From assembly GCA_045605445.1 (NCBI GenBank), contig JAZUPZ010000029.1, positions 26,265 to 90,264 of the forward strand: a DNA stretch of 64,000 bases. Reading direction: 5' to 3'. Below the pieces are notes generated by a model, which did no database searches, was not told the DNA's origin, and saw only the letters and a program-made list of their open reading frames with translations. The position numbers were made by a program, and so were the translations under genes. Source of the stretch: Clostridia bacterium. Its GTDB lineage: Bacteria > Bacillota > Clostridia > RGIG6154. Of the stretch, positions 34,064 to 58,039 are shown in pieces (position 1 is the stretch's first letter; every line of letters starts with the position of its first letter).

Positions 34064-34140
34064 ACTCCGGTGAAATGGGTTAAAATAGCTGAAAAAAGGG
34101 TAAAAATTATACAAAAACACCAAAAATTTTAAAAAAGTAC

Positions 34141-34169: not shown

Positions 34170-34242
34170 GGATTTATGAATAAAATGGTGTAAACCTTTT
34201 TATATCCCAATTTTAAAAAATTTATAGGAGGTGAATTTGGTC

Positions 34243-34515: not shown

Positions 34516-34534
34516 TTATATATTTGAAGTCTTA

Positions 34535-34568
34535 TAAAGCAGCTTTTTAAGCTGCTTTATTTTTTATG
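34535..34568 (+). terminator. Intrinsic terminator after hup (aaagcagc-ttttta-gctgcttt plus T-run)
   Basis: A hairpin is followed by a poly-T tract. Confidence 0.6.
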
Positions 34569-34579
34569 GAAGAAGTAAT

Positions 34580-34822
34580 ATGAGAATAGATAAATTTTTA
34601 AAGGTATCAAGAATAATAAAAAGAAGAACTGTTGCAAACGAAGCCTGCGACAAGGGCAAAATAACCTTAAACGGTAAAGTTGCAAAGGCCTCTGCCAATG
34701 TTTCAGCAGGTGACATAATGGAGATCACTTTCGGAGAGAAAACCGTTAAGTTTGAAATCTTAAAAGTTGATGAGCATGTTAAAAAAGAAGATGCTCCTCT
34801 TATGTACAGGCAGTTCGATTAA
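34580..34822 (+). CDS. S4-domain RNA-binding protein, YabO/Hsp15-like (RqcP-type)
   Basis: An S4 fold (MRIDKFLKVSRIIKRRTVANEACDKGKITLNG) sits in the conserved position after hup. Confidence 0.8.
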   Translation: MRIDKFLKVSRIIKRRTVANEACDKGKITLNGKVAKASANVSAGDIMEITFGEKTVKFEILKVDEHVKKEDAPLMYRQFD

Positions 34823-34870
34823 GATAGAAATTTTGAAATTGCTGTCTTAAAAAGAATAAATAATAAAAAT

Positions 34871-34909
34871 TGTTGAAACTCACTGGTTTTGTCAGGAGTT
34901 TCTTTTTTT
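34871..34909 (+). terminator. Intrinsic terminator (gaaactc...gagtttc plus T8). A second hairpin at 34917-34944 (atttcaacc-ggcg-gttgaaat plus T-run) follows.
   Basis: Hairpins with U-tracts can be read directly in the sequence. Confidence 0.6.
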
Positions 34910-34968
34910 TAAAATAAATTTCAACCGGCGGTTGAAATTTTTTGTATTATAGGGTAAAATAATTACAG

Positions 34969-36423
34969 GTGATACAAATGACAGTTGATAAAATGGCGGA
35001 AAGCCTTAAAAAATTAAGAAAAAAATTAAATATGTCCCAGCAGGAATTCGGCGAGGCGCTGGGAGTTTCAAACAGAGCCGTTTCAAAGTGGGAAAAAGGG
35101 CTTTCAAAGCCCGGAATGCAAACCTGGCTTAAAATTTCCGAGCGCTTCAATGTGCCTATTGATAAGTTTATAAAGCCCGCAAGGGAGGAAATAAAAACAG
35201 ACAGAGTTAAAACAAAGAAAACAACTCTTCCTTCAATAAAGGGGCTTTATAAAATCGGCAGAGGGCCTTCAAGCTCACATACAATGGCGCCTGAAAAGGT
35301 TTGTAAAATATTCAAGAAAAAATATGAAGATGCCGACTTTTTTGAGGTGCACCTTTTCGGCTCCCTTGCCAAAAACGGAAGGGGAAGCCTTACCGATAAG
35401 GTTATAGAAAGAGTTTTTTATCCCGTTGATGTGAAAATTCATTTCGACTATTCGGGAGTGGATCTGCCCCATCCCAACACTATGGAGCTTTATGCTTTCA
35501 AGAAAAATAAAAAGCTCGGCTTTATGAGGGCGTACAGCACCGGCGGCGGTGATATTGAGGCTGAAGGCGAGGTTCTTGAAACTGTAAATGATGTTTACCC
35601 CTTCAATAAGTTTGAACAGATAGCAAACTATTGCTTTGAAAACAACAAAAAGCTGTGGCAGGTGGTTGAAGAATTCGAGGGCGAGGGCATATGGGAGTAC
35701 CTTGAAAAAATATGGGAAACTATGAAAAAAACAATTCAAAAAGGGCTTGAAGAGGAGGGAACTCTTCCCGGAGGGCTTGACGTTAAAAGAAAAGCAAAAT
35801 TCCTTTTTAATCAGAGGCATATGGACGAAAGCAGCGAAACAAAGCAGAATCGAATTGTTTGCTCCTATGCTTTTGCAACCTCCGAGCAGAATGCCTGCGG
35901 CGGAATTGTTGTAACTGCGCCAACCTGCGGAGCTTCGGGAGTTCTTCCTGCGGTTTTGCTGTATAATCAGGAAAAAAGAGGATTTACGGATAAGGAAATT
36001 TACAGAGCTCTTGCGGTTGCGGGGCTTGTGGGAACGATAATAAAAACCAATGCCTCCATAAGCGGGGCAGAGTGCGGATGTCAGGCAGAAATCGGAACAG
36101 CGTGTTCAATGGCAGCGGCAGCTCTGGGGCAGCTTTTCGGTCTTGAAATTGACCAGATTGAGTATGCTGCAGAGGTCGCAATGGAGCACCATCTGGGACT
36201 TACCTGCGACCCTATTGCAGAGCTTGTGCAAATTCCCTGCATTGAAAGAAATGCAGTTGCGGCAATGAGAGCAATAAACTCGGTTAGTCTTGCAAATTTT
36301 CTGAGCGGCTCCAGAAAAATTTCCTTCGACCTGGTGATAGATACAATGTACGAAACAGGTAAAGATATGTCTAAAAATTACAGAGAAACAAGCGAAGGCG
36401 GACTTGCAAAGCTTTATAACTAA
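34969..36423 (+). CDS. L-serine dehydratase (Fe-S type) with an N-terminal XRE-family HTH domain fused
   Basis: Residues 1-60 form an HTH_3 (LRKKLNMSQQEFGEALGVSNRAVSKWEKG). The GPSSSHTMAP and CGG..VTAPTCGASGVLPAVL motifs of the serine dehydratase family follow. Confidence 0.7.
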   Translation: MIQMTVDKMAESLKKLRKKLNMSQQEFGEALGVSNRAVSKWEKGLSKPGMQTWLKISERFNVPIDKFIKPAREEIKTDRVKTKKTTLPSIKGLYKIGRGPSSSHTMAPEKVCKIFKKKYEDADFFEVHLFGSLAKNGRGSLTDKVIERVFYPVDVKIHFDYSGVDLPHPNTMELYAFKKNKKLGFMRAYSTGGGDIEAEGEVLETVNDVYPFNKFEQIANYCFENNKKLWQVVEEFEGEGIWEYLEKIWETMKKTIQKGLEEEGTLPGGLDVKRKAKFLFNQRHMDESSETKQNRIVCSYAFATSEQNACGGIVVTAPTCGASGVLPAVLLYNQEKRGFTDKEIYRALAVAGLVGTIIKTNASISGAECGCQAEIGTACSMAAAALGQLFGLEIDQIEYAAEVAMEHHLGLTCDPIAELVQIPCIERNAVAAMRAINSVSLANFLSGSRKISFDLVIDTMYETGKDMSKNYRETSEGGLAKLYN

Positions 36424-36540
36424 AGGTCTGCTGTAAAGACAAGCCGTCAAAAAAACAACGGAAAAATAGGAGCATATGAAACTGTATTCTTAAAACAGAA
36501 ATGTTGAATTGACTTTTATATACAAGAAACGGAGAAACTT

Positions 36541-41257: not shown

Positions 41258-41893
41258 TTGTATAAGTGTTTTTTTAAGAGATTTTTTGATATTGTTATTT
41301 CGTTTTTCGGTGTTCTTGCGTTCTTACTTGTTTTCATAATAGTTGCACCAATTATTCATTTTACCGACGGAGGTCCTGTTTTCTACAATGCACAGAGAAG
41401 GGGAAGAAACGGCGAGGTTTTCAAAATGTATAAATTCCGTTCAATGAAGGTAAACTCGCCCGACCTTCGCAATGCCGACGGCTCTACATATAACGGCGAT
41501 AACGATCCCAGAGTTACAAAAATCGGAAGAATACTGAGAAAAACCAGCCTTGATGAAATTCCTCAGGTGCTCAATATTTTTCTTGGCGATATGAGCATCG
41601 TTGGTCCTCGTCCGGTGCTTCCTACAAAGCCCGTTGACAGAACCGATGAAATGAGAATGAAAAGGTTCAGCGTAAGACCCGGTCTTACAGGATATAATCA
41701 GGCATATTTCAGAAATTCCGTTGATCAGGAAACAAAGCTTAAAAACGACTGCTACTATGTTGACCATCTTACCTTTATGATGGACGTTAAGGTTATTTTT
41801 GTAACTGCATTAAACGTTCTCAGAAGAAAAAATGTTTACGTTGAACAGGGTGAAACTCATATTGCGCCCGAAAAGGAAGAGGTTAACAAATAA
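41258..41893 (+). CDS. Undecaprenyl-phosphate sugar phosphotransferase, small PglC/WbaP-C-terminal type (priming transferase)
   Basis: FKRFFDIVISFFGVL...KMYKFRSM...PRVTKIGRILRKTSLDELPQ is the bacterial sugar-transferase signature. I chose the TTG start at 41258 with an RBS agggggaa. Confidence 0.8.
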   Translation: MYKCFFKRFFDIVISFFGVLAFLLVFIIVAPIIHFTDGGPVFYNAQRRGRNGEVFKMYKFRSMKVNSPDLRNADGSTYNGDNDPRVTKIGRILRKTSLDEIPQVLNIFLGDMSIVGPRPVLPTKPVDRTDEMRMKRFSVRPGLTGYNQAYFRNSVDQETKLKNDCYYVDHLTFMMDVKVIFVTALNVLRRKNVYVEQGETHIAPEKEEVNK

Positions 41894-43074
41894 TGAAAAA
41901 GCTAATGGTAATCGGAGCCTCTGTGCTTCAGCTTCCTGCAATAAAAAGAGGCAAGGAGCTGGGCTTTGAGGTTGCCGCCGTAGACTACGATGAAAATGCC
42001 GTAGGCATAAAGTATGCAGATAAATTTTATAATATCAGTACAATCGATGCCGAGGGCGTTACCGAAGCGGCAAAGGATTTTAAGGCAAACGGAATAATGA
42101 CTCTTGCCTCTGATATGCCTATGCGCAGTGTTGCAAGGGCGGGAAAAGAGCTGGGACTTCCGGCAATTTCCGAAGAAACTGCAATTTGTGCTACCGATAA
42201 AGGAGAAATGATAAAATGCTTCAAAAAATGCGGTGTTCCTTCTCCCTGGTATTTTATTGCAAAAGACAAAAAAGAATTTGAAGAGCTTCTTGAAAAGGTT
42301 GAGTATCCCTGCATAATGAAGCCTCTTGACAATTCGGGAAGCCGTGGAATTATCCTTGCCAAAAGCAAAGAAGAACTCAAAGAAGGCTATGAATACAGCT
42401 CTTCAAACTCAAGAGGAGCGGGAGTAATAGTTGAAGAGTTTCTTACAGGAAAGGAAATAAGCGTTGAGGTTATGACCGTTAACGGCAAAGCGTATGTTCT
42501 TGCAGTTACCGATAAAACCACGACCGGTCATCCTCACTTCGTTGAAACGGGACACGCTCAGCAGTCTGAGTTTACCGGCGAAATAAGAAAACAAATTGAA
42601 GAGGTTGCAAAAAAAGCAGTTTTCTCAGTAGGAATAGAAAACGGACCTGCCCACGTTGAAATGATGGTAACGGACAAGGGGCCGAAAATGATTGAGCTTG
42701 GTGCCCGAATGGGCGGCGACTGTATAACAACCCATCTTGTTCCCCTTTCAACGGGAATTGATATGGTTGAAGCAACCATAAGGGTTGCCTGCGGTGAAAC
42801 TCCCGACCTTGAAAAGAAGTTTGACAAGGGCAGCGCAATAAGATATTTCAATGTGCCAAAAGGAAAAATAAAAGAAATAAAAGGCGTTGAAGAGGCAGAA
42901 AAGCTTGAAGGTGTAAAGGAAATTACCTTTGTTAAAAATGTTGGCGACGAGGCGGTTGAAATCAACAGTTCTGCCGACAGAGTGGGTTTTATTATCGCTC
43001 AGGGAAGAGATGCCTTCGAGGCAAAGGAAATCTGCAAAAAAGCGATGGAAATGATAAAAATAGTAATTGAGTAG
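41893..43074 (+). CDS. ATP-grasp ligase (carboxylate-amine ligase type) 1
   Basis: ATP-grasp motifs are present (EYPCIMKPLDNSGSRGI, EEFL.G.E.SVE). Confidence 0.75.
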   Translation: MKKLMVIGASVLQLPAIKRGKELGFEVAAVDYDENAVGIKYADKFYNISTIDAEGVTEAAKDFKANGIMTLASDMPMRSVARAGKELGLPAISEETAICATDKGEMIKCFKKCGVPSPWYFIAKDKKEFEELLEKVEYPCIMKPLDNSGSRGIILAKSKEELKEGYEYSSSNSRGAGVIVEEFLTGKEISVEVMTVNGKAYVLAVTDKTTTGHPHFVETGHAQQSEFTGEIRKQIEEVAKKAVFSVGIENGPAHVEMMVTDKGPKMIELGARMGGDCITTHLVPLSTGIDMVEATIRVACGETPDLEKKFDKGSAIRYFNVPKGKIKEIKGVEEAEKLEGVKEITFVKNVGDEAVEINSSADRVGFIIAQGRDAFEAKEICKKAMEMIKIVIE

Positions 43075-43083
43075 GTGTGAATT

Positions 43084-44382
43084 ATGGATTTAAAAAATAA
43101 AACACTGCTTCTTATGGGCGGCGGTGCTTATGCAAAAGGACTTAAAAAATATAAAGACGAAAAGGGCTTTAAAATGATTGCCGTTGGCAGAGATGCCGAC
43201 ACTCCTCTCAGCAGAATAGCAGACGAGTTTTATCAGATTAACACTCAGGATGTTGATGCAGTATCAAAGCTTGTTGAGGAAAAGGGAATCGACGGAATTT
43301 TTGTAGGCTCCTCAGAGGTTAATATCGACCCTGCAATAAAGGTTGCAGAAAGAACCGGCGCAAGATTTTACACCGACAGAAAACAGTGGGACCTTATTTC
43401 AAACAAGGCAAGATTCAAGGAGTTCAGCAGAAAGAACAATGTTCCCGTTGTTCCCGAATTCAGACTTACAAAGGAATTAAAAGAGGAAGACCTTGAAAAG
43501 CTCGTTTTTCCGATAATGATAAAGCCTGTTGACAGCAGCGGTGCCAGAGGTCTTTATGTGTGCTACACAAAAGAGGACCTGCTTAAAAATTACAGCGAAG
43601 CCTTAAAGTGGTCACAAAGCGGAGAAATTATCGTTGAGAAGCTTATAACCGACAGCGACGAGGTTTTCTTTTACTACACAATGCAGGACGGAAACTACAG
43701 CCTTTCTGCGGCGTTTACAAAGCATAAAGTTATATCTGGAAGTGAATATGTTGATGCAACCCTTCCTATTTTCCATATGTACCCCTGCAAATACGTTCCC
43801 GAATTTTTAAGGGATGTTGACCCGGGCGTTAAAAAAATGTTCAGGGAAATGGGACTCAAAAACGGCGTTATAATGCTTCAGGGCTTTGTAAACAAAGAAG
43901 GAAAATTCTGCTTCTTCGAGTCGGGCTTCAGAATGGGCGGCGAGCAGATGTATATTTTAACCGATTATCAGTGGGGAATTAACTCCCTTGAAATGATGGT
44001 TAACTATGCCCTTACCGGAAGTATGGCAGATTTTGATATAAGCGAAAAAGACGATGCAAGGTTCAGACATCCCTGCTGCAACTACTATGTAAGCCTTAAA
44101 TCAGGGGTAATAAAGGAAATGAACGGCATTGAAGAGGTTGAAAAAATGCCTGAGGTTCTTAATGTAACCGTAATGAGTCAGCCGGGAGACGTTATTCCCG
44201 AAACTAATGCGCTTGAACGTTGCTGTCTCAGAATTCACGTTGTGGGAGAAACAAAGGAAAAGCTTGCAAAGGCTCTTGAAAAAATCAGCGCAACCTTAAG
44301 AATTATCTCAACAGAAAACGAAGAAATGCAGATTGAGCATCTTACATATGAAAGATGCCTCGATGCAATAGAAAGGTCTTAA
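43084..44382 (+). CDS. ATP-grasp ligase 2
   Basis: ATP-grasp motifs are present (FPIMIKPVDSSGARGL, VEKLI.....FFYY). It is paralogous to the upstream gene. Confidence 0.75.
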   Translation: MDLKNKTLLLMGGGAYAKGLKKYKDEKGFKMIAVGRDADTPLSRIADEFYQINTQDVDAVSKLVEEKGIDGIFVGSSEVNIDPAIKVAERTGARFYTDRKQWDLISNKARFKEFSRKNNVPVVPEFRLTKELKEEDLEKLVFPIMIKPVDSSGARGLYVCYTKEDLLKNYSEALKWSQSGEIIVEKLITDSDEVFFYYTMQDGNYSLSAAFTKHKVISGSEYVDATLPIFHMYPCKYVPEFLRDVDPGVKKMFREMGLKNGVIMLQGFVNKEGKFCFFESGFRMGGEQMYILTDYQWGINSLEMMVNYALTGSMADFDISEKDDARFRHPCCNYYVSLKSGVIKEMNGIEEVEKMPEVLNVTVMSQPGDVIPETNALERCCLRIHVVGETKEKLAKALEKISATLRIISTENEEMQIEHLTYERCLDAIERS

Positions 44383-44385
44383 ATT

Positions 44386-45732
44386 ATGATTCACGCAACA
44401 AAGCTTCTTGCTGAATTTGTGTATAATCTTAAATTTGAAAATATTAAAAAAAGCGACGTTGAATATACAAAGCTGCTTATAATGGACTACTTTGCCGCTT
44501 CCTTTGCGGGAATTAAGGTCAACAAGGTCTACAATCGTGCAGTAGAGGAAATAATCTGCGGAATGGGCGGAAAAGAGGAGGCTTCGGTGCTTAATTCAGC
44601 CAAAAAGCTTCCCTTGCTGAATGCAGCATTTGTAAATGCAACCTATGCTCACGGTGCCGATATGGACGACGGTCACAAAAGGGCAATGGGACATGTGGGA
44701 GCTCACGTTATTTCAGCAGTTTTTGCTCTTGCTCAAACGTTGAACGTTTCCGGTAAAGAGGTTTTAACGGCAATTGTTGCGGGCTATGAAATTTATGTAA
44801 GAGTGTCTGCAGCGGCTCAGCCGGGCCTTGTAAACAGAGGCTTCCATTCAACGGGAACTGCAGGAGCAGTTGCCTGTGCGGCGGCTTGTGCAAAGCTCCT
44901 TAAGCTTGATGCAAAAGGGATTTACAATTCAATGGCAATTTCCGTAACTCAGGCAAGCGGGCTTATGATTATCGCCGAAAGCGGACAAATGATAAAGCCG
45001 CTTAATCCTGCAAGGGCGGCTCAGGGCGGAATTCTGTCAGCCCTTATGACAAAAAAAGGAGTTGTGGGCGGAGACTTTCCTCTTGAAAGCGAAAAGGGAT
45101 GGTTCCACGCTATGACCGACTCCGTTGACGAGGGAATGATAACAAAGGGACTGGGCGAAAGCCTTGAGGTAAGCCAGTGCTACTTTAAGCCATATCCTTC
45201 CTGCCGTCATACTCACGGGGGCGTTGAGGCGGCTCTTGAACTGAGAAAAGGAATTAACATAAACGAAATTGAAAAAATTACTCTTTACACATATAAAAAT
45301 GCAATAAAAATTGCGGGGCAGATAGAAATTCCCGAAAAAGAGGGAGACTCGAAATTTTCTATTCACTATGCCCTTGCCTGCGCTATTGCAAGAGGCCATT
45401 TCGGTCTTTCAGACCTTGCCCTTGAAAATAACGGAGATGTTATTGCCTTTGTTTCAAAAATTCAGCTTGTTGAAGATCCGGGTATGGAAATAAAGGAAAA
45501 GGGAATAAGAGGCGCAAGACTTGAAATTACAATGAAGGACAAGAGAGTGCTTGAAAAAACGGTACTTGTTCCAAAGGGCGATCCCGAAAGCCCCTTCACA
45601 GTTGAGGATATGAAGGAAAAGCTTGAAGGCTGTGCAGGAAAAGATTTCGGAGAAAATATTGCCGACAGGGTTATTGACTATGTAAACAATATTGAATTTC
45701 AGGACAAGTTCCGATATATAAGAGAGGGTTAA
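44386..45732 (+). CDS. MmgE/PrpD-family protein (2-methylcitrate dehydratase / cis-aconitate decarboxylase superfamily)
   Basis: The N-terminal LAEFV..L.FE.I....V...K....D..A....G and the overall length are typical of MmgE/PrpD. Confidence 0.8.
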   Translation: MIHATKLLAEFVYNLKFENIKKSDVEYTKLLIMDYFAASFAGIKVNKVYNRAVEEIICGMGGKEEASVLNSAKKLPLLNAAFVNATYAHGADMDDGHKRAMGHVGAHVISAVFALAQTLNVSGKEVLTAIVAGYEIYVRVSAAAQPGLVNRGFHSTGTAGAVACAAACAKLLKLDAKGIYNSMAISVTQASGLMIIAESGQMIKPLNPARAAQGGILSALMTKKGVVGGDFPLESEKGWFHAMTDSVDEGMITKGLGESLEVSQCYFKPYPSCRHTHGGVEAALELRKGININEIEKITLYTYKNAIKIAGQIEIPEKEGDSKFSIHYALACAIARGHFGLSDLALENNGDVIAFVSKIQLVEDPGMEIKEKGIRGARLEITMKDKRVLEKTVLVPKGDPESPFTVEDMKEKLEGCAGKDFGENIADRVIDYVNNIEFQDKFRYIREG

Positions 45733-45735
45733 AAA

Positions 45736-46815
45736 ATGAGTATTATAAACAAGCTTCAAAGCGCATCAATGACTGCGAGAAAAATAAGAAGAAAAATTCT
45801 TGTTAAAAAGTCGAACAAAAGCTATTTTAAAAAATTAAAGGACCACGGTATTCCCTTAAGGGAGCTTTCTTCTGAACAGAAAAAGCAGATTGACGGGGTT
45901 TACAAAAAATATAATTTTAAATATGGCTACGATACTCACAGGCTTATCTATTCGGTGACCGGAAATTTTGATCCTTATTTTATGCCCGAGGATATGTTCC
46001 GTCAGATTGAGCTTAAACTCAACGATCCGGAGCTTAAAGGTGCCTGGTCAGACAAGAGCTATTTTGACTTTTTCTTCCCGGAAATAAGATTTCCCGTGAC
46101 CGTTGTAAGAAACATTGCGGGTACCTTCTATGATAAAGACTATAATATAATTTCAGCGGAAAAGGCAAAGGAAATTGTTTCAGCATACGATAAATTTGCA
46201 ATAAAGCCCTCCCTTGATAACGGAACGGGCAAAGGGGTTGCTCTCGGCACAAAAGAGGACGACCTTGACAAAATGTTTAAAAAATATAAAAGAGATTACG
46301 TTATTCAGGAGGTAATCAAACAGCATAAGAACATTGCTCAGTTTAATGAATCCTCCGTTAACGTTGTAAGATTTATAAGCCTTTTTGTAAACGACAGGGT
46401 TGTTCCCGTAATGGCGGCATTAAGAGTTGGCGCAAAGGGAGCTTTTAACGACAACTCAATCTCAAAAGAGGGCGAGGGTATGCTTGTAATCGGCATCGAC
46501 GAAAAGGGATGCCTTAAAAAAGATGCCTATATGTCCTGCGGTATGAGGGTTGAAGAGTCTCACAGCGGAGTAAGATTCGAAGGGGTTCAGATTCCCGGCT
46601 TTGAAAAAATGAAGGAAATAATTGTAAAGGGTCACAGCAAAATGCCGAACTTCAAGTTCGTTGCCTGGGATTTTGCCGTTGATGAAAACGGCGAGGTTCT
46701 TGTTATGGAATATAACATAAAAGGTCCCGGAGTGCTCTATTATCAGTATGTTAACGGTCCGCTTTTTGCAGAGTATACCGATGAATTATTAAAATATGTT
46801 CAGGAGAAGTTGTAA
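45736..46815 (+). CDS. Sugar-transfer-associated ATP-grasp protein (TupA-like), tentative
   Basis: Its size, its glycan-locus context and the C-terminal FVAWDFAVDENGEVLVMEYN / VVRFISLF segments resemble the ATP-grasp_TupA family. Confidence 0.45.
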   Translation: MSIINKLQSASMTARKIRRKILVKKSNKSYFKKLKDHGIPLRELSSEQKKQIDGVYKKYNFKYGYDTHRLIYSVTGNFDPYFMPEDMFRQIELKLNDPELKGAWSDKSYFDFFFPEIRFPVTVVRNIAGTFYDKDYNIISAEKAKEIVSAYDKFAIKPSLDNGTGKGVALGTKEDDLDKMFKKYKRDYVIQEVIKQHKNIAQFNESSVNVVRFISLFVNDRVVPVMAALRVGAKGAFNDNSISKEGEGMLVIGIDEKGCLKKDAYMSCGMRVEESHSGVRFEGVQIPGFEKMKEIIVKGHSKMPNFKFVAWDFAVDENGEVLVMEYNIKGPGVLYYQYVNGPLFAEYTDELLKYVQEKL

Positions 46816-50041: not shown

Positions 50042-51121
50042 ATGAAAATTTGTTTTGTAACCGGCTCTCTTAAATTCAGCGGAGCGGAAAAAATAATTTC
50101 TATGCTTATGGACAAGCTTAATGAAAGAGGTCATGATATAAGCGTTATTCTTTTAAGCAAAAAAGAGGCAGTTGAAGGCTTTGATTATGCAACCCAATAT
50201 CCCTGCTTTGTAAGAGGAAATCCCGTTTCAAAGGTGCTTAACAGAATTAAAAAAATAAGAAAAATTGCAAAGGAAAACAAGTTCGATGCAATAATTTCCT
50301 TTAATGCCCTGTTTAATATCGACGTACTTTTTGCTCTTATGGGGACAAAGTCAAATGTTATCTGCTGTGACAGAAACGACCCGGTTTACGACCCTCCGGA
50401 GCTTAACAGAAGAATAAGAAGAAAAATTTTCTATCCTTTGTCAAAGGGCTTTGTTTTCCAGACAGAGGTTATAAAAAATTACTATAAAGAGGGAATAAGA
50501 AAAAAATCTGTTGTAATTCCCAATTTTATCGAGGCAGACTATGAATGTGTTGCCGAAAACAAAAGAAGAAAGGTTATTGCAACCTCTGCCCGTCTTGATG
50601 ATAATCAGAAAAACCACGTTATGCTTTTAAAGGGCTTTGCGGAATTTTCAAAAACAAACAGCGAATATACCCTTGAAATGTATGGCGACGGTCCCGACAG
50701 GGCAAAATACGAGGCTCTTATAAAAGAGCTGGGAATGGAAGAGAAAATAATTCTTTGCGGACGTGTTGAAAACGTTTCCGAAAGACTTAAAGATATTGAA
50801 ATTTTTGTGCTTACCTCAAAATTCGAGGGAATGCCAAATGCTCTTATAGAGGCAATGGCAACAGGTTTGCCCTGTATTTCAACCGATTGCGGCGGTGGCG
50901 GAGCTGCGGCACTTATTGAAAACAACGTAAACGGAATTTTAATTCCGCAAAATGACATTAAGGCTTTCACAAAAGCTCTTGAAAAGCTTGCTTCAGACGA
51001 AGCTTTAAGAATTGAGCTTGGTAAAAATGCCTATAAAATCAATCAGCGTCTTGATATAAACAAAATTGCGGTTATGTGGGAAGATGCAATTGAAAAACTG
51101 ACAAAAGGAACGGATAAATGA
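50042..51121 (+). CDS. Glycosyltransferase family 4
   Basis: EGMPNALIEAMATGLPCISTD is the E-x7-E motif. The RBS is aggtgagg. Confidence 0.85.
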   Translation: MKICFVTGSLKFSGAEKIISMLMDKLNERGHDISVILLSKKEAVEGFDYATQYPCFVRGNPVSKVLNRIKKIRKIAKENKFDAIISFNALFNIDVLFALMGTKSNVICCDRNDPVYDPPELNRRIRRKIFYPLSKGFVFQTEVIKNYYKEGIRKKSVVIPNFIEADYECVAENKRRKVIATSARLDDNQKNHVMLLKGFAEFSKTNSEYTLEMYGDGPDRAKYEALIKELGMEEKIILCGRVENVSERLKDIEIFVLTSKFEGMPNALIEAMATGLPCISTDCGGGGAAALIENNVNGILIPQNDIKAFTKALEKLASDEALRIELGKNAYKINQRLDINKIAVMWEDAIEKLTKGTDK

Positions 51122-52425
51122 GAGTACTTAACCCTTTGGAAAAAAACAGCATAATTCACGATATGGCAATGTTCTGCCTGGCGCTCTGGATTGTTCTTAA
51201 CACAACCTTTGAGTTCTTCTCGGGCTATACGGTATTGTCCTCCCTTTCAATGTATCTGTTTCTGGGAGCTGGAGCCTTCTGGCTTCTTATAAAGGGCAGA
51301 TATACAATTGCAGGAAATTACTATTTCGTGTCCCTTATATTTCTTGAAATTCTGATTCTTATATCAACCTTTTTCGTGCCAAGCACAATTACAAAATACG
51401 TTGACATGTATACCTACAGATTTTCAACTAACGTTGTTATGGCTTTTATAATAATTAACCTTATAAAGGACGAAAAAGATATCGATTACATATTCAAAGC
51501 CTTCGTAATAGGCGGAGTTTTGCTTACTATAATGTTTTACTCCGTTTACGGCTTCGACGTTTTCGAGTTTGAAGCAATGGCAAATGATGACGAATCAAGA
51601 TTCGGCTGGGAGTTTGGAAACGTTAACGTTCTTGCTCAGAGATGCTCCTTCTCCCTTATATTTGCTCTTTACTATATGATTTTTACAAAGAAAAAGGCAA
51701 GTAAAATATGGTATCTTTTAATTGTTGCGGCAACCTTTACGGTTATTCTGTTCTCCGGTTCAAGAAAATCGGTTCTTGTAGTTGCTTTCGTTGCGGTATT
51801 CCTTATTATGAACCGTCAGAAAAGAACGGGAGTGGGCAAAAGGCTTACGGCGGTTGCCGGTGCTATTGCGGTTATTGTGGCAATTGTTGTGGTTATTATG
51901 ACAGTTCCTGCTTTTGAGGTTGCAAGGGTAAGGCTTGAGAGTCTTTTCGAGGTATTCTTAGGCGGAAACTTCAGCGTTTCCGATATGAGACGAATGGTGT
52001 ATATAAGAAGGGGACTTTCTCAGTTTCTGAAATCGCCTTTCTTCGGCAACGGAATGTGTTATTCTGTTTATATGTTCGGAACATATACCCATAATAACTT
52101 TGTTGAAATGCTCCTTAACTTTGGTGTTGTAGGTTTTATAATTTACTATTCTTCCTACTATATCAGTATGAGAAAGGCATTAAGCAAACAGTTTGGCTAC
52201 GACAGAAAAAGAAAAATTCTTTTTATAGGAATTATCCTTTCCATTCTTGTTACCGAGATGGGAATTATAACTTATTATGACAGAAACATTGTTGTTCTTC
52301 TGTGCGCCGTAAGTAAATATTATTCAGATATTGTTTATGTAAAAGTGCCGGAGGAAGAGGAAGAAGTCGAAGGCTTTAACGAAGAGTATGAAGAAGATTT
52401 TGAGCTTTCTGAAGATTCAGAATAA
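51118..52425 (+). CDS. Wzy-type O-antigen/polysaccharide polymerase (multi-TM) with acidic C-terminal tail
   Basis: It has ~10-12 TM helices, a large loop and no soluble domains, and sits between the glycosyltransferases and Wzx. Confidence 0.6.
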   Translation: MRVLNPLEKNSIIHDMAMFCLALWIVLNTTFEFFSGYTVLSSLSMYLFLGAGAFWLLIKGRYTIAGNYYFVSLIFLEILILISTFFVPSTITKYVDMYTYRFSTNVVMAFIIINLIKDEKDIDYIFKAFVIGGVLLTIMFYSVYGFDVFEFEAMANDDESRFGWEFGNVNVLAQRCSFSLIFALYYMIFTKKKASKIWYLLIVAATFTVILFSGSRKSVLVVAFVAVFLIMNRQKRTGVGKRLTAVAGAIAVIVAIVVVIMTVPAFEVARVRLESLFEVFLGGNFSVSDMRRMVYIRRGLSQFLKSPFFGNGMCYSVYMFGTYTHNNFVEMLLNFGVVGFIIYYSSYYISMRKALSKQFGYDRKRKILFIGIILSILVTEMGIITYYDRNIVVLLCAVSKYYSDIVYVKVPEEEEEVEGFNEEYEEDFELSEDSE

Positions 52426-52442: not shown

Positions 52443-53927
52443 ATGGCTAAAGGATTGATGAAAACCGTAAAGGGAATGGCATTGATGTCTTCAAGCATTT
52501 TTATTGACTATGTGGTCAATCTTATAATAACTTATGTGCTTGCAAGGCTTCTTACTCAGGCAGATTACGGTGAGGTTGCGGCAATAACGGTAATGGTCGG
52601 CTTTGCGGACATTTTCTGGCAGATGGGCGTAGGTCCTGCTCTTGTTCAGAAAAAAGATGCTACTGAAAAAGACATTTTAACAGCCCAAACTCTTAACCTT
52701 ATGTTTGGCGTTGTGCTATTTTCGGTTGTTAATATTTTTGCAGGCTTCTGGGTTAAAGTTTTCAGCATTTCAAATATTATAATGTTCAGAATTTACTCAA
52801 CTGTTTTCCTGCTGAACAGCTATATTGCAACCCCTATGTCTCTTGCGCAGAGAAACTGCAATTTCAAGCTTTTGTCAAAGCTTAATGTATGGGGTGTTGT
52901 GTTCTACGGGGTTATCGCAATAATCCTTGCAAAAATGGGCTTTGGTCCCTGGGCACTTATTTATGCAACCCTTTTGAGATATGTGTTCAAGCTGGTGCTG
53001 CTTGTTATTAACGTAAAGCTGAAATTCAGCCTTTATTTTAATAAGGAATCGGCAAAAAGCCTTCTTTTCTTCGGAAGCGGACACACTCTTGCAAGAATTT
53101 TTAATTACATAGCAAATAACGGAGATACCTTCGTTGTAAATAAAACTCTTACAAAAGCGGCGGTAGGCGCCTATACAAAAACCTACAGCCTTATCGGTTA
53201 TCCCGCAAGCCTTATCGGAAACACTCTTGACCACGTAATGTTTCCCATTTTATCAGGCTGTCAGGACGACCACGCAAAAATCAGAAAGTTTTTGTATACC
53301 TGCACAAGCTTTGTGGCGCTCATGACGGTTCCTCTTTCGGTTACCTGTGTTTTCTGCAGCGAAGACCTTGTTCTTTTCTTCCTGGGCGAAAACTGGGTAT
53401 CAATCGTTGAACCCTTTAATATAATGATTGTTGCTCTGTTCTTCAGAACGGCATACAGAATTGCAGATACAATAACAAAATCAATAGGTAAGGTTTATTA
53501 CCGTTCCGTAATTCAGATTGTTTATGCGGTTTCGGTTGTTCTCGGAGCCTATGTCGGTCACTTTAACGGACTTACAGCTATCGCTTTTTATGTAACAATT
53601 GCTTTTGTTCTTAACTATTTCCTTATGACCGGACTTTGTATGTATTTTATAAAAGCAAATGTTCTTAAATATATCTCAACGGCAATCGGACCTTTTGTTT
53701 ACGGCTTTGTGGCTCTTATGGCGGGAATGCTTGTTAAAGGCTTTATAAATCAGATTCAGAACCACTTCCTGGTGTGCGCCGCATGGGCAATATTTATTTT
53801 CGGAATTTACGCTCTGCTCTTTTTAACAACAAGAAAGTTTATGCTTGTAAAAGAATTAAACGAGTCCTTTGATTCGGTTGTAAAATCCTTTTTCAGTAAG
53901 CTGAAAAAGAAAAATCAGGAGGGATAA
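52443..53927 (+). CDS. Wzx-type oligosaccharide flippase (MOP superfamily)
   Basis: It has 12-14 TM helices and the polysaccharide-biosynthesis-protein architecture. Confidence 0.7.
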   Translation: MAKGLMKTVKGMALMSSSIFIDYVVNLIITYVLARLLTQADYGEVAAITVMVGFADIFWQMGVGPALVQKKDATEKDILTAQTLNLMFGVVLFSVVNIFAGFWVKVFSISNIIMFRIYSTVFLLNSYIATPMSLAQRNCNFKLLSKLNVWGVVFYGVIAIILAKMGFGPWALIYATLLRYVFKLVLLVINVKLKFSLYFNKESAKSLLFFGSGHTLARIFNYIANNGDTFVVNKTLTKAAVGAYTKTYSLIGYPASLIGNTLDHVMFPILSGCQDDHAKIRKFLYTCTSFVALMTVPLSVTCVFCSEDLVLFFLGENWVSIVEPFNIMIVALFFRTAYRIADTITKSIGKVYYRSVIQIVYAVSVVLGAYVGHFNGLTAIAFYVTIAFVLNYFLMTGLCMYFIKANVLKYISTAIGPFVYGFVALMAGMLVKGFINQIQNHFLVCAAWAIFIFGIYALLFLTTRKFMLVKELNESFDSVVKSFFSKLKKKNQEG

Positions 53928-53930: not shown

Positions 53931-55421
53931 ATGTTATCTGCGGTTGAAAAATTTATAAAAACCTTTAATGAAAAGGGAATTTTATACTGTCACTATAAAG
54001 GAAACAATCATATAGAAGATGGCCTTGAAGGCATATCCGACCTTGACATTCTTGTGGATAAAACACAAAAAAAAGAATGTAAAGAAGCTTTGAAGGAAAT
54101 GGGCTTTGTTCACTTTAAATCTCAGGAGGGTTCGGCTTTTGAGTCTGTGGAAGACTGGATAAACGTTGACAGCGAAACGGGAAAAATGATTCATATTCAT
54201 TTGTATTATGAAATAATAACCGGAACAAAATACGTTGAAGAGTATCGTATCCCCTGGGAAAAACAAATTCTTGAAACAAGAATTCAGGATGTTAACCACG
54301 GCGGAATTTACATTTCCTCAAGAGAGGCAGAGCTTGCTCTTGTTTATGCAATTATGAGCCTTAAAAAGGAAAAAAGCGTTTCGGAAAAGAATATGAAAAA
54401 GCTTGATTTCTTTAAGCCCGTTGCGGAAGATGAAGCTCTTGAAGCTTTTCTTAAATCTGTGTTTAAAGAAGAGGATGCGGAAAAATTCGGAGAAATTCTT
54501 CACAGATATTATAACCTTGAAAAAACATATAAAATCATTTCTTCTTATGCAGAAAGAAGGGTAAGCCCTTTGAAAACCCTTCTTTGTCATAAGAAAACTG
54601 ATTTTAAGATAAAAATGAAATCAAAGCTTAACAGAAAGCTTAAAACCAATTTTGTTTTAAAGAAAACAATTGAAGGTAACGGATTTTCTGTTTGCTTTGC
54701 AGGTGCCGACGGCTCAGGAAAAAGCACAATCAGTGCCGATGTAATCAAATGGCTTAACTGGAAAATAGACTCAAAAAATTTTTACCTCGGAAGCGGTGAC
54801 CAGTATCACAGCCTGTGGAAAACAATAACCCTTAAGTTCGGCGGAAGAACAAGCAGAACAGCTCCTGCAGCAGATTCAAAGCCTGAGGATAAAGAAAACA
54901 ATGCGGTAAAAGCTCCGGCTCCCGTTAAAAGAAAGTTTTCAATTTTAAGCTACGGTATGGCGGTTGTTAACTGTCTTAACGAGGTTGGAATAGCAAAGTA
55001 TAAGTATAAAACTCTTAAAAAAGCCGAAAAATATATGAGAAAAGGCGGAATTGCAATTTTTGACCGCTTCCCTCAGATGCAGTTTGCGGGAGTTTACGAC
55101 GGTCCTAAGCTTGATGGCGTGCTCAAAAAATTCCCAAAAAGTATTGTTATAAATCATTTTCACAAAAAAGAACGTAAGCTTCTTGAGCTTATAACAACAA
55201 ATTATTATCCTACAATTTTAATTAAGCTTATTCTTCCGCCGGAAGAGTCAATAAGAAGAAAACCCGACCATAATTTCAAAGAGGTTGCGCTTAAGGCAGA
55301 AATTACCGAAAAGCTTGAATTTGAAAAATCTCAGGTTGAAAAAATTGATGCAACCCAGCTTTATGAAAATGAACTCATTGAGGTGAAAAACATTATATGG
55401 GAAAAAGTAAAAAGCCTGTAA
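53931..55421 (+). CDS. Two-domain protein: N-terminal nucleotidyltransferase-fold (GLEGISDLDILVD) plus C-terminal P-loop kinase (dTMP-kinase-like, FAGADGSGKST ... FDRFP)
   Basis: The hG[GS]..SDxD motif of Pol-beta-type nucleotidyltransferases is present, together with Walker A and a DR(Y/F)-like motif. Confidence 0.45.
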   Translation: MLSAVEKFIKTFNEKGILYCHYKGNNHIEDGLEGISDLDILVDKTQKKECKEALKEMGFVHFKSQEGSAFESVEDWINVDSETGKMIHIHLYYEIITGTKYVEEYRIPWEKQILETRIQDVNHGGIYISSREAELALVYAIMSLKKEKSVSEKNMKKLDFFKPVAEDEALEAFLKSVFKEEDAEKFGEILHRYYNLEKTYKIISSYAERRVSPLKTLLCHKKTDFKIKMKSKLNRKLKTNFVLKKTIEGNGFSVCFAGADGSGKSTISADVIKWLNWKIDSKNFYLGSGDQYHSLWKTITLKFGGRTSRTAPAADSKPEDKENNAVKAPAPVKRKFSILSYGMAVVNCLNEVGIAKYKYKTLKKAEKYMRKGGIAIFDRFPQMQFAGVYDGPKLDGVLKKFPKSIVINHFHKKERKLLELITTNYYPTILIKLILPPEESIRRKPDHNFKEVALKAEITEKLEFEKSQVEKIDATQLYENELIEVKNIIWEKVKSL

Positions 55422-56083
55422 TAATAGAGCTTACGGGATTTCCGGGAGTGGGAAAAACAACGGTAAGCAGTAAGCTTTCCGAAAGGTACGGTCAGGAGCT
55501 TAACCTTTCCGATTACATAAATTTTTTTAGCAGCGGGGAATCGGGCGTTAAGAACTATATAAAATTTTTAAAGGACGGCGACCTTGTTCAGCTTTTCAAC
55601 CTTGCTTGTTATCTTGCTTCGATAAGAAGGCTTAAGTCAATAAAATATGTTCTGAAAAATGTATATATATTTACTCTGACTTACAAAAGCTTCTGCAAAA
55701 ACAGTAAATACAGCTACACTCTCTCAGACGACAGTATGATTCAGGCAATAACCCTGCTGAATTTTCCAGAAAAATTTGTTCTTAATAAATATTCTGAAAG
55801 AATTTTCAAAAGGCTTTTTTCAAGGTTTGAAATAGTTGCGGTTAACTGTATCTGCGACAAGGAAATCTGTATGGAGAGGCTTATTGAAAGAAATCACAGC
55901 AAGGGAAGATTTGACAAAATTGACAAAAACAATAAAGAAGAGCTTAAAAGGGTTCTTGGAAATTTTGAAGAATCTCTTGAAATTGTAAGAAATTATCTTG
56001 AAAGTATCGGCGTAAAGCAGATAAATCTTGATATGACTGCGACACCTGAGGAAAATGCGGAAATAATTTATAAAAATCTTTAA
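55397..56083 (+). CDS. P-loop NTPase / small-molecule kinase (AAA_33/zeta-toxin/CPT-like fold)
   Basis: Walker A GFPGVGKTT lies at the N-terminus of a ~225-aa protein. Confidence 0.5.
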   Translation: MGKSKKPVIIELTGFPGVGKTTVSSKLSERYGQELNLSDYINFFSSGESGVKNYIKFLKDGDLVQLFNLACYLASIRRLKSIKYVLKNVYIFTLTYKSFCKNSKYSYTLSDDSMIQAITLLNFPEKFVLNKYSERIFKRLFSRFEIVAVNCICDKEICMERLIERNHSKGRFDKIDKNNKEELKRVLGNFEESLEIVRNYLESIGVKQINLDMTATPEENAEIIYKNL

Positions 56084-56095
56084 AGGAAGTATTTT

Positions 56096-57277
56096 ATGAT
56101 ATCGGATAAGCTTTTAACTCAATTTTTAAAAAGATACCCGGGAGCGGAAAACCCTATGAAGGCATTCTGTCCTTACAGAGTTTGCCCCATCGGTGCCCAC
56201 GTTGACCATCAGCACGGGAAAATAACCGGCTTTGCTATTGATAAGGGAATTGAAATTGTGTTCATCCCTACAAAAAACGGCGTTGTTGAACTGTCAAGCC
56301 TTAACTTTGAAGGTAAAAAACAGTTTCATATAAACAGTGTTCCCGAAAAGCAAAATGACTGGGCAGACTATTTAAGAGGTGCAACAATTGCAATCGGAGA
56401 AAGATACGAGCTGAAATACGGGGTTTATGCTCTTATTTCCGGCGGTCTTCCCATAGGCGGACTTTCTTCCTCTGCGGCTGTAATTCTTGCCTATATGTCA
56501 GCTCTTTGCAAGGCGAACAACATTCATCTTAACCAAAGAGAGGTTGTTGAAATTGCTCAGTCGGCAGAGAATAATTATGTTGGAATCAGCGTTGGAAAGC
56601 TTGACCAGTCCTGCGAGATATATTCCAAAAAAGAGCATCTGCTTTATCTTGATACAAGAACAGACGAATATCAGCTTATTCCTTTAAATAAAAAAATGAA
56701 GCCCTTTGAAATTGCGGTTTTTTTCAGCGGAGTTGAAAGAACTCTGGTGGGAAGCGCATATAATATGCGAGTAGACGAGTCAAAATCTGCGGCATATGCT
56801 CTTCTGGCTTTTGCAAATCAGCCTTACGGCAAATTCAAAGAAACCAGACTTCGCGATGTTGAAGAAAGTGTTTTTGAAAAATATAAGGACAAGCTTCCGG
56901 AAAACTGGAAAAAAAGAGCAATGCACTATTACAGCGAGCAAAACAGAGTTGAAAAAGGCGTTGAGGCGTGGAAAAACGGCGATATCGATGCTTTCGGAAG
57001 CCTTTCTTACGAAAGCGGAATAAGCAGTATTGAAAATTATCAGACAGGCTCAACCGAGCTTAAAGCATTAAGTGAAATAATGGCTCATACCGAAGGTATT
57101 TACGGCGGAAGGTTCAGCGGAGCAGGCTTTAAAGGCTGTTGTATAGCTCTTGTAGACCCGGCAAAAAAGAAAAGCATAAAAGAACAGGTTACAAAGGAAT
57201 ATCTCGGAAAGTTTCCTGAGCTTGAAGGCAAATTTTCCGTTCATTTCTGTAAAACCGCCGACGGATGTGAATTTTAA
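56096..57277 (+). CDS. GHMP-family sugar 1-kinase, galactokinase-like
   Basis: It has a GalK signature (PYRVCPIGAHVDHQHG) and the GHMP motif LPIGGLSSSAAV. Confidence 0.8.
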   Translation: MISDKLLTQFLKRYPGAENPMKAFCPYRVCPIGAHVDHQHGKITGFAIDKGIEIVFIPTKNGVVELSSLNFEGKKQFHINSVPEKQNDWADYLRGATIAIGERYELKYGVYALISGGLPIGGLSSSAAVILAYMSALCKANNIHLNQREVVEIAQSAENNYVGISVGKLDQSCEIYSKKEHLLYLDTRTDEYQLIPLNKKMKPFEIAVFFSGVERTLVGSAYNMRVDESKSAAYALLAFANQPYGKFKETRLRDVEESVFEKYKDKLPENWKKRAMHYYSEQNRVEKGVEAWKNGDIDAFGSLSYESGISSIENYQTGSTELKALSEIMAHTEGIYGGRFSGAGFKGCCIALVDPAKKKSIKEQVTKEYLGKFPELEGKFSVHFCKTADGCEF

Positions 57278-57295
57278 AACAAAGGAGAAGGATTT

Positions 57296-58039
57296 ATGAA
57301 ATGTGTTGTTCTTGCGGCAGGATATGCAACAAGGCTGTATCCTCTTACAGAAAATTTTCCAAAACCGCTTCTTGAGGTTAAAAACAAAACTATTCTCGAT
57401 TGGCTTTTAGATGATATCGACGGTATTGAGGGAATAAATGAATATGTAATTATTTCAAATCACAGATATTTTGAGCATTTTAAAAGCTGGGCAGAAAATA
57501 AAAAGCTTTCTGCTCCTATAACCCTTATAGACGATGGCTCTGTTGATAATGAAAACAGACTGGGAGCAGTAAAGGATATTGATTTTGCGGTAACCGAGTT
57601 AAAGCTTAACGACGATTTAATGGTTATCGCAGGGGATAACGTGCTCGATTTCAGCTTTAAATCTTTTGCAGACTACTTTAAAGAAAAAAACAGTACCTGC
57701 ATAATGAGATATTTTGAAGAAAATAAAGAGAAAATAAAAAAGAGCGCTGCGGCAGTTGTTGATGAAAACGGCAAGGTTCTCAATATGACTGAGAAACCTG
57801 AAAATCCTCAGTCAAACTGGTGCGTTCCGCCCTTTTACATTTATAAAAAGTGCGACATTCCTTACATAAAAAAGGCAATAGAATCCGGCTGTAAAACCGA
57901 TGCTCCGGGAAGCTTTGTTGCCTGGCTGTCTTCTCAGACAACCGTTCATGCAATGGAAATGCCGGGTAAAAGATTCGATGTGGGAAACCTTGAAAGCTAT
58001 AACTATGTAAAGGAAACCTATAACGGAATAACAAAATAA
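57296..58039 (+). CDS. Sugar-1-phosphate nucleotidyltransferase
   Basis: MKCVVLAAGYATRLYPLT..FPKPLL is the NTP_transferase N-terminal signature. Confidence 0.8.
   Translation: MKCVVLAAGYATRLYPLTENFPKPLLEVKNKTILDWLLDDIDGIEGINEYVIISNHRYFEHFKSWAENKKLSAPITLIDDGSVDNENRLGAVKDIDFAVTELKLNDDLMVIAGDNVLDFSFKSFADYFKEKNSTCIMRYFEENKEKIKKSAAAVVDENGKVLNMTEKPENPQSNWCVPPFYIYKKCDIPYIKKAIESGCKTDAPGSFVAWLSSQTTVHAMEMPGKRFDVGNLESYNYVKETYNGITK

Follow-up and report, generated by a model that had tools for sequence, protein, structure and literature searches.

O-antigens, capsules and exopolysaccharides are made mainly by Wzx/Wzy-dependent assembly, a pathway whose list of components is regarded as largely complete. 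Glycans can be decorated by small-molecule kinases together with nucleotidyltransferases, as in LicA-LicC-LicD, FKRP/fukutin and the Cj1415-Cj1418 phosphoramidate pathway; in LicD and FKRP a nucleotidyltransferase (NTase)-fold transferase moves a phospho-linked group onto a sugar, and the Lic, FKRP and Cj1415-Cj1418 systems all depend on a small-molecule precursor of their own and on a cytidylyltransferase. In the pseudomycoidin lasso-peptide cluster, a kinase phosphorylates a hydroxyl, and the addition of hexoses to the phosphate on the C-terminal Ser requires the nucleotidyltransferase PsmN, for which no activity was reconstituted in vitro (PMC11912497). A survey of phosphonate biosynthesis describes GCF 540, where phosphoenolpyruvate (PEP) mutase is flanked by 'thymidylate kinase and PF14907' (PMC8942020). 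Here we analyse four consecutive genes at positions 53931-58039 of a 64,000-nucleotide stretch of DNA from a Clostridia bacterium (contig JAZUPZ010000029.1; the whole stretch is called the window), which encode a 496-residue fusion of an NTase-fold domain to a P-loop kinase (FUS), a 228-residue P-loop kinase (PLK), a GHMP kinase and a nucleoside triphosphate (NTP)-transferase. FUS and PLK are referred to as cassette A, and the GHMP kinase and NTP-transferase as cassette B. The four genes form the 3' end of a Wzx/Wzy-type polysaccharide operon, which holds two independent two-gene cassettes, and the FUS-PLK pair recurs across phyla as a conserved accessory element of Wzx/Wzy loci, usually abutting a flippase or polymerase gene.

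An earlier note on this DNA, made from the sequence without database searches, had placed four open reading frames (ORFs) on the forward strand downstream of a flippase gene, and their positions were confirmed:

51118-52425: Wzy-type gene (Wzy_C)
52443-53927, + strand: Wzx-type MOP flippase, directly upstream of FUS (PF13440 Polysacc_synt_3, 236.7 bits)
53931-56083: cassette A
53931-55421, + strand: FUS, ORF of 496 residues
55397-56083, + strand: PLK, ORF of 228 residues
56096-58039: cassette B
56096-57277, + strand: GalK-family GHMP kinase, ORF of 393 residues
57296-58039, + strand: NTP-transferase, ORF of 247 residues
58043-58064, + strand: terminator-like hairpin from a consensus scan, with a 9-bp stem and a short T-run (ACTTTTATGA), 4 nt past the last stop codon

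Only 3 nt separate the flippase gene from FUS, FUS and PLK overlap by 25 nt, and the subsequent gaps are 12 and 18 nt. The hairpin is probably the end of the operon; the total of terminator-like sites does not exceed the shuffle expectation, and the position of this one is suggestive only. Because of the tight spacing and of a hairpin so close to the last stop codon, we take the four genes to be the last ones of an operon that starts near 40051.

More than 200 full-length FUS homologues, at 33-42% identity, are present in the protein database, and a scan of one genome per GTDB species detected FUS relatives in 245 species genomes; this conservation over the full length argues that the architecture is more than chance. 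A phmmer search with the N-terminal domain against 1.84 billion cluster representatives gave 953 matches at E<=1e-10, and since the best 150 of these are mostly 470-530 residues long, the size of the fused protein, the domain appears to be essentially always joined to the kinase. The neighbourhood results rest on 80 of the 245 FUS loci, in which ORFs were called and then clustered. These loci come from Bacillota, Bacteroidota, Cyanobacteriota, Planctomycetota, Acidobacteriota, Gemmatimonadota, Chloroflexota, Verrucomicrobiota and Pseudomonadota, and from the archaeal lineages Halobacteriales, Methanosarcinales and Nanoarchaeota.

With 51 members in 49 loci, PLK forms the third-largest cluster overall, and a profile detected PLK-like genes in 57 of 81 loci. 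In the 54 loci with at least three genes on each side of FUS, the counts are as follows:

PLK adjacent to FUS: 31 of 54 loci
PLK within three genes of FUS: 40 of 54 loci
Wzy-type gene anywhere in the locus: 43 of 54 loci
Flippase gene anywhere in the locus: 34 of 54 loci

The two genes overlap at 36 of 42 FUS-to-PLK junctions, with a mode of -16 nt, although the overlap lengths are possibly slightly overestimated because the longest ORFs were taken. A same-strand flippase gene lies immediately upstream of FUS in 23 loci, 20 of them with an overlap or a gap of at most 12 nt, and among 63 cases the gene that follows PLK is a Wzy gene in 13 and a flippase gene in 12; Wzy-type genes downstream of the pair were confirmed by Pfam in several phyla. 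On the Chelatococcus plasmid pTAD1 the order is tyrosine-kinase (Wzc), hypothetical (FUS), 'AAA family ATPase' (PLK) and oligosaccharide flippase, and the pair sits inside an XrtA/PEP-CTERM exopolysaccharide locus. A cluster of about 733-residue proteins with Wzc-like sequence, a likeness judged by eye, occurs in 31 loci. Three metagenome proteins carry FUS within a larger chain: P0233 (1038 residues) is a fusion to a Polysacc_synt_3 flippase, P0200 (915 residues) a fusion to Wzy_C, and P0151 (730 residues) joins FUS to a second NTase-like domain. The first of these looks genuine, as it has a long linker and no Met at the junction. Across the 80 loci, no dedicated precursor-synthesis or transferase gene co-varies with FUS or PLK.

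FUS and PLK are thus a rare but recurrent component of Wzx/Wzy loci that had gone unrecognised; no literature on the pair was found and no curated family covers FUS. The earlier note had held that they are not standard glycan-locus components, which is right as to their rarity and lack of recognition and wrong as to their recurrence. It had also joined all four genes into one precursor-activation module, and this proposal is not supported: in 42 loci from various phyla, FUS and PLK stand as a pair of their own with overlapping or almost overlapping genes, and the pair tracks Wzx/Wzy genes and no precursor pathway. Cassette B occurs in only two of the 80 loci, both from Clostridia. It lies downstream of the FUS-PLK pair in one (L001) and about 7 kb upstream of it, on the opposite strand, in the other (L011), its two genes being adjacent to each other in both. 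Relative to the window, the cassette B proteins of these loci are 59-64% identical and FUS is 36-38% identical, which points to different histories of the cassettes. From the rare co-occurrence, the separate placement and the unequal identities, we infer that cassettes A and B are independent units which are neighbours here by chance. The base composition fits separate acquisition of the two: among the 40 genes of at least 150 residues in the window (median G+C content 0.393), FUS (0.357) and PLK (0.345) are the two lowest, while the GHMP kinase gene (0.412) stands above the median; the NTP-transferase gene is at 0.374. The AT-richness ascribed to the whole four-gene block therefore applies to FUS and PLK only.

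Some loci hold more than one copy. Two diverged FUS genes are found in tandem in L033 (8273-11488; 43% identity) and also in L045 (8744-16926; 50% identity), and two full FUS-PLK pairs of about 30% identity are present in each of L043 (5320-12132) and L044 (4795-12111), where the pairs are separated by a glycosyltransferase gene and a Wzy-like or unclassified gene, and in L044 also by an acetyltransferase-like gene. In two cultured Bacillales, FUS may be a pseudogene or a split gene: stop codons interrupt its reading frame in Sporosarcina thermotolerans (L010, 10001-11501), and in Salipaludibacillus daqingensis (L039, 9992-12015) it is divided into ORFs of 256 and 371 residues.

To describe the two proteins we used alignments of FUS homologues of 33-42% identity only (A1/A2), of the FUS N-terminal domain across phyla of bacteria and archaea (A5), and of PLK (A3 and A4). 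A single-sequence homologue search with PLK returned only PLK, and a profile built from the locus neighbours (A3) was needed. The domains and motifs of the window proteins are:

53931-54650, + strand: N-terminal NTase-fold domain and helical linker of FUS, about residues 1-240
53985-54011, + strand: YCHYKGNNH (family consensus YCHWKSNEH), strand 1 and helix 2 of the NTase domain
54021-54056, + strand: NTase signature GLEGISDLDILV, G34-x-S/T36-D37-x-D39
54162-54206, + strand: beta-hairpin with D80, H88, H90 and position 92 (HxHxH in the family, Y92 in the window protein)
54663-55421, + strand: C-terminal P-loop kinase domain of FUS, about residues 245-496, YghR/YghS/YghT family
54696-54731, + strand: FUS Walker A motif FAGADGSGKSTI (GADGSGKST), with a thymidylate-kinase-style Asp in the P-loop
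55056-55109, + strand: IFDRFPQMQFAGVYDGPK, a DR[FY]-type motif as in thymidylate kinases, followed by DGP
55418-55465, + strand: PLK Walker A motif VIIELTGFPGVGKTTV (GFPGVGKTT)
55718-55915, + strand: PLK D111/Q116 motif (consensus DQGxxQ) and Arg-rich lid with R161, R165 and R171

An AlphaFold2 model of FUS, computed with 88 homologues as input, reached a predicted local distance difference test score of 92.4 and a predicted template modelling score of 0.89. According to this model, FUS is a rigid two-domain protein in which a Pol-beta-type NTase fold is joined to a P-loop domain of thymidylate-kinase fold: an alpha/beta N-terminal domain (about residues 1-150) is followed by a helical linker (150-240) and by the P-loop domain (245-496), which contains a long helix and a low-confidence variable or disordered insert at about 300-337. 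The N-terminal domain is structurally similar to known NTase-fold proteins, the nearest solved fold being MenT1. The Pol-beta pattern, an hG[GS] turn and then [DE]x[DE] as strand 2 begins, is present in the window protein as G34-I-S36-D37-L-D39, and in the model the strand (E38-42) follows helix 25-32. G34, D37 and D39 are invariant in A1/A2; in the phylum-wide A5, conservation remains complete at D39 and is at least 90% at G34, T36 and D37. The same alignment shows H21 and K23 of YCHWKSNEH to be invariant and Y19, C20, W22, S24, N25, E26 and H27 at least 90% conserved; in the hairpin H88 is invariant and D80, H90 and H92 are at least 90% conserved, D80 being a candidate for the third carboxylate of a Pol-beta-type active site, and K103, E134, R141 and K145 are also kept in all or at least 90% of the sequences. 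In the kinase domain, the positions that all or at least 90% of the A1/A2 sequences share are G258-x-D-G-x-G-K-S, D378-R-F-P-Q, D390-G-P and S440-x-x-R443; among them G258, D260, G261, G263, K264 and S265 of the Walker A motif, and D378, R379, P381, Q382, D390 and G391 of IFDRFPQMQFAGVYDGPK, are invariant.

No curated family reaches its cut-off for FUS in the Pfam and NCBIfam-type scans. PF14907 scored 22.3 bits over the whole protein and 24.5 bits for the domain alone, below its gathering cut-off of 31.2; it matches 15 of 41 relatives at E<0.01 and P0151 at 36.1. Given these sub-threshold scores and the relatives that do match, FUS is best regarded as a distant PF14907 relative and not as a curated member. 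The genes flanking PEP mutase in GCF 540 encode the two domain types of FUS, in a phosphonate setting; a phosphonate link for FUS and PLK was rejected, as a motif search found no PEP-mutase motif in any ORF of the 80 loci and the window. The C-terminal domain has the thymidylate-kinase fold with an Asp in the P-loop and the DR[YFH] motif, and the dTMP kinase model TIGR00041 gives only 12.4 bits (E 0.093) against a cut-off of 83.25. Comparison of FUS with the PDB, by single sequence and by profiles A2 and A5, returned P-loop noise only.

PLK is a separate P-loop kinase with a deoxynucleoside/nucleoside monophosphate (NMP)-kinase fold. In its Walker A motif, G14, G19 and K20 are invariant in A3, and E11, G14, G17, G19, K20 and T22 in A4; further along, A3 shows Q116, R161 and R165 to be invariant and D111 and R171 at least 90% conserved. 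The middle region of the protein is very variable, and the mean column identity is 24% (A3), as compared with 35% for the FUS N-terminal domain (A5). Its strongest sequence matches, all below cut-off, are UMP/CMP and adenylate kinases, and at family level it is only a generic 'AAA' match: the UMP/CMP-kinase model gives 26 bits against a cut-off of 207.6, and scores stay at or below 26 against cut-offs of 152-284. Two further candidates were set aside. PLK and the FUS kinase domain are not paralogues, since in hhalign the profile-profile likeness is limited to the P-loop, and a sulfotransferase reading found no resemblance in the fold comparisons, nor in the family and structure tests.

The earlier note had read domains and folds correctly in all four proteins; the NTase and Walker A motifs it quoted are present, the NTase motif is conserved in homologues, and its view that FUS and PLK are not housekeeping kinases agrees with the model scores given above. 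Of the two outcomes that the note had named as grounds for dropping its reading, neither occurred. The resemblance it saw to zeta toxins and to Cj1415 did not hold up: the zeta-toxin model PF06414 gives 13.4 bits (cut-off 22.3) over P-loop residues 4-32 only of PLK, and the Cj1415-type APS kinase model TIGR00455 gives 12.6 bits against a cut-off of 138.7.

By tblastn against plasmid records, E. coli YghR, YghS and YghT were recognised as homologues of the FUS kinase domain, and hmmsearch with the FUS profile matched the three proteins with E values of 4e-33, 1e-31 and 3e-25 over profile positions 260-494, that is, over the full domain. They have in common with FUS the motifs GxDGxGKST, DR[FY]PQ (DRFPQ or DRYPQ), DGP and RKPDH, and their genes adjoin a MOP-family flippase gene (yghQ); unlike FUS, they are stand-alone proteins of 230-252 residues and have no NTase domain. 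The gene yghT is present in 4734 of 5426 complete E. coli genomes. In NZ_CP025842.1 (3848854-3865489; our locus L083, relevant stretch at locus coordinates 1-8669), the neighbours are genes for an acyl carrier protein, serine palmitoyltransferase (spt), LptG/LptF-like permeases, a YtfJ-family protein and a hypothetical protein, together with YghQ and the three P-loop paralogues YghR/S/T, and the whole resembles a lipid or sphingolipid-type synthesis and export locus. This neighbourhood extends the link between the kinase family and MOP flippases beyond glycan loci. PGAP calls YghS and YghT 'dTMP kinase' despite scores far under the model cut-off, and no functional study of yghQRST was found in the literature.

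Cassette B is made of more familiar parts. The GHMP kinase matches PF00288 (GHMP_kinases_N), PF10509 (GalKase_gal_bdg; 36.3 against 23.1) and PF08544 (GHMP_kinases_C) above their cut-offs, and it aligns end-to-end with archaeal and bacterial GalK (P. furiosus GalK 1s4e, E 1.7e-43). All GalK equivalog models are nevertheless missed, TIGR00131 at 205.4 against 226.65 and the others at 228, 218 and 188 against 443, 385 and 499, respectively. The kinase keeps the catalytic Arg, the Asp of GxLDQ, the PxGGLSSSA phosphate loop and the SxYNxR motif; the GalK signature GRVNLIGEHTDY, however, reads YRVCPIGAHVDH, so that against GRxNLIGEHxDY the segment GEHTDY has become GAHVDH (Glu to Ala, Tyr to His). 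The NTP-transferase matches PF00483 with 95.3 bits over residues 3-241 (cut-off 21.2) and RmlA 4ho0 at E 3.6e-11, its G-loop reads AAGYATRL, and it reaches no NCBIfam equivalog, the best being AglF (89.7 against 400). These family matches agree with the kinase-then-pyrophosphorylase salvage pair that had been proposed for the last two genes. Cassette B is most likely a sugar salvage route from free sugar through sugar-1-phosphate to nucleoside diphosphate (NDP)-sugar, in which the GalK-family kinase would phosphorylate C1 of the free sugar and the PF00483 enzyme would turn the sugar-1-phosphate into an NDP-sugar for a glycosyltransferase of the locus. Judged by sequence family, the sugar is probably galacto-configured, and the Ala in place of the signature Glu suggests a sugar other than galactose; this Glu contacts O6 of the sugar in GalK, and its loss would point to a difference at C6.

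As to cassette A, we propose, with a probability of about 0.4, that it modifies the lipid-linked repeat unit at the flippase with a phosphate-containing group; the division of labour is the weakest part of this proposal. No Pfam membrane family matches FUS or PLK and the FUS model is a compact alpha/beta structure, from which both proteins are predicted to be soluble. With genes that abut, and are occasionally fused to, the flippase gene, this would place the pair at the cytoplasmic face of the membrane, where it would work on the flippase substrate, the completed lipid-linked repeat unit. As no dedicated precursor or transferase gene co-varies with the pair, its donors may be universal metabolites, ATP or other NTPs only, and the group installed would be a phosphomonoester or a phosphodiester/nucleotidyl group. 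In deoxynucleoside-kinase-like enzymes the phosphate acceptor is a hydroxyl, and in thymidylate-kinase-like ones it is a phosphomonoester next to a sugar hydroxyl. Following these chemistries, PLK, hydroxyl-kinase-like and with a variable middle region, would recognise and phosphorylate the variable glycan, the thymidylate-kinase-like domain of FUS would act on the phosphate-bearing acceptor, and the strongly conserved NTase domain would transfer a nucleotidyl or phospho-linked group, leaving a decoration or a tag. The duplicated, diverged copies, and a variability of PLK above that of the FUS N-terminal domain, point to a substrate-specific enzyme rather than a general factor. The phosphate-containing substituent that the earlier note suspected on the polymer is a reasonable hypothesis.

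Several observations weigh against this proposal. The mechanism was inferred from fold, motifs and neighbourhood, no member of the family has an established activity, and proteins of NMP-kinase fold can be non-metabolic ATPases. About a quarter of the well-flanked loci have no PLK, so that FUS and PLK are not obligate partners. The fusions P0233, P0200 and P0151 are all singletons on short metagenome contigs, and P0200, which contains an internal Met at its junction, may be an artefact of read-through. The window FUS departs from the consensus at W22Y, S24G, E26N and H92Y; it retains H21, K23, H27, D37, D39, D80, H88 and H90. An NTase domain was sought in the E. coli yghQ locus and none was found, and glycosyltransferases are absent from it as well, so the conserved link may be from kinase to flippase or from kinase to lipid, and not from kinase to glycan. 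No phosphate-bearing polymer is documented for any host. A wider form of the proposal, in which FUS/PLK and YghR/S/T together mark a widespread and so far unrecognised flippase-coupled phosphotransfer step, with an NTase-kinase docked at Wzx/Wzy or at other MOP flippases phosphorylating or nucleotidylating a lipid-linked intermediate (glycan or lipid-phosphate), we consider rather doubtful. If true, flippase-coupled phosphotransfer would tag or gate the intermediate for export or leave a phospho-decoration on many uncharacterised exopolysaccharides.

Of the other explanations, the one that survives best, although unlikely, is that FUS and PLK, with YghR/S/T, are a nucleotide-dependent regulator or scaffold of Wzx/Wzy, an ATP/NTP-sensing switch that leaves the polymer unmodified. 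Such a role would agree with the tight Wzx/Wzy adjacency across phyla, with the flippase-FUS and Wzy-FUS fusions, with E. coli kinase homologues that stand beside a flippase without glycosyltransferases, and with the lack of a co-varying transferase or precursor gene in the 80 loci. It does not explain why all three domains retain a complete complement of catalytic-type residues, and duplicated, diverged pairs in one locus fit substrate-specific enzymes better; moreover, a regulator may already exist, given the Wzc-type gene beside the pair in Chelatococcus and the Wzc-like cluster recognised by eye.

A single four-gene pathway, in which cassette B makes an NDP-sugar that FUS and PLK phosphorylate or nucleotidylate into an unusual activated donor, is improbable. 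The 3'-phosphorylation of CDP-amidate by Cj1415 offers an analogy, the four genes are contiguous, tightly spaced and in one operon ending at the hairpin, the cassettes co-occur in two further loci, and a nucleotide-linked acceptor is plausible for two P-loop domains that both have nucleotide or nucleoside kinase folds. Against this stand the scarcity and the displaced copy of cassette B, its different degree of identity and the low APS-kinase score, and the presence of FUS/PLK without cassette B in cyanobacteria, Gemmatimonadota, Bacteroidota, Alphaproteobacteria and archaea. Local recycling, by which UMP and NDPs set free in the phosphoglycosyl transferase and glycosyltransferase reactions would be re-phosphorylated by the pair to sustain the supply of NDP-sugars, we hold to be distinctly improbable: both P-loop domains are most like NMP, deoxynucleoside monophosphate and nucleoside kinases, and the best PLK matches are UMP/CMP and adenylate kinases, but the scores lie far under every curated kinase cut-off and profiles found no PDB relative beyond the P-loop. 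Recycling is already performed by housekeeping kinases, and it leaves the fused conserved NTase domain, the flippase adjacency and the diverged duplicates unexplained.

It is very improbable that the pair is a selfish or defensive element of variable glycan loci, such as a MenT/AbiEii-like NTase toxin with a kinase partner, since PADLOC-DB 2.0 gave no match for FUS and only dCTPase (E 0.0034) and VakA (E 0.0074), neither significant, for PLK, the genes stand in-operon among Wzx, Wzy and glycosyltransferase genes in nearly all loci, and fusions to flippase and polymerase exist. Ordinary housekeeping thymidylate, cytidylate or adenylate kinases are scarcely credible, even though some pipelines label relatives 'thymidylate kinase' or 'dTMP kinase', in view of the model scores, the NTase fusion and the location of the homologues in glycan loci.

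Upstream of the two cassettes, the same operon encodes a DegT aminotransferase, a Bac_transf phosphoglycosyl transferase, ATP-grasp ligases, an MmgE/PrpD protein and GT4 and GT2 glycosyltransferases, besides Wzy and Wzx. Within it, positions 41893-46815 hold an MmgE/PrpD-family gene and three ATP-grasp genes, two of the L-amino-acid-ligase type and one 'sugar-transfer associated ATP-grasp' gene, which suggests an amino-acid or organic-acid decoration of the polymer, independent of cassettes A and B. Elsewhere in the window, 30194-39312 contains a CapD-like Polysacc_synt_2 gene and a second MOP flippase gene (32468-34063), and between these and the main operon lie a helix-turn-helix-serine dehydratase fusion (34969-36423) and a complete MmeI-family restriction-modification enzyme (36541-39312). 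A lone ORF of 3344 residues with an N-terminal signal-like sequence (1348-11382) is probably a giant surface protein.

What the locus adds to the picture of Wzx/Wzy assembly is a conserved, predicted cytoplasmic enzyme pair, encoded between flippase and polymerase genes in at least nine bacterial phyla and in archaea, and homologous through the FUS kinase domain to three unstudied E. coli y-genes beside a flippase gene. If the lipid-linked unit is modified, many exopolysaccharides of the environment and the gut may bear a phosphate-type substituent that has escaped notice and that would affect charge, recognition by phages and antibodies, and material properties; if instead flipping is regulated by FUS/PLK, a new control point would be gained. 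The E. coli yghQRST genes and the cyanobacterial and Paenibacillus loci make the question experimentally approachable. Cassette B, a probable salvage route with an altered sugar-binding motif, is of routine interest.

Compared with known systems, every part of cassette A belongs to a known superfamily at the fold level, and FUS lies outside all curated families. The FUS kinase domain has no significant sequence-profile match to Tmk (PF02223/TIGR00041) beyond the P-loop, and differs from it by the long insert and long helix, the NTase fusion and the coding in glycan loci. Unlike the PF14907/MenT/AbiEii-type NTase-fold proteins, FUS does not stand in a toxin-antitoxin context. The Lic and Cj1415-Cj1418 pathways differ in that no precursor or cytidylyltransferase gene co-varies with FUS/PLK, and the Pfam scan of the window proteins gave no LicD family match. 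For cassette B the nearest known pair is the galactokinase GalK with a nucleotidylyltransferase of the RmlA/GalU/AglF type, and HddA/HddC and Fkp are comparable kinase/pyrophosphorylase systems. PsmK and PsmN differ from PLK and FUS in their substrate, a peptide Ser, and PsmK is an HPr-kinase-type kinase, not one of the P-loop NMP-kinase fold; they resemble the roles proposed here for PLK and FUS in that a kinase and an NTase-fold enzyme together build a phospho-linked decoration.

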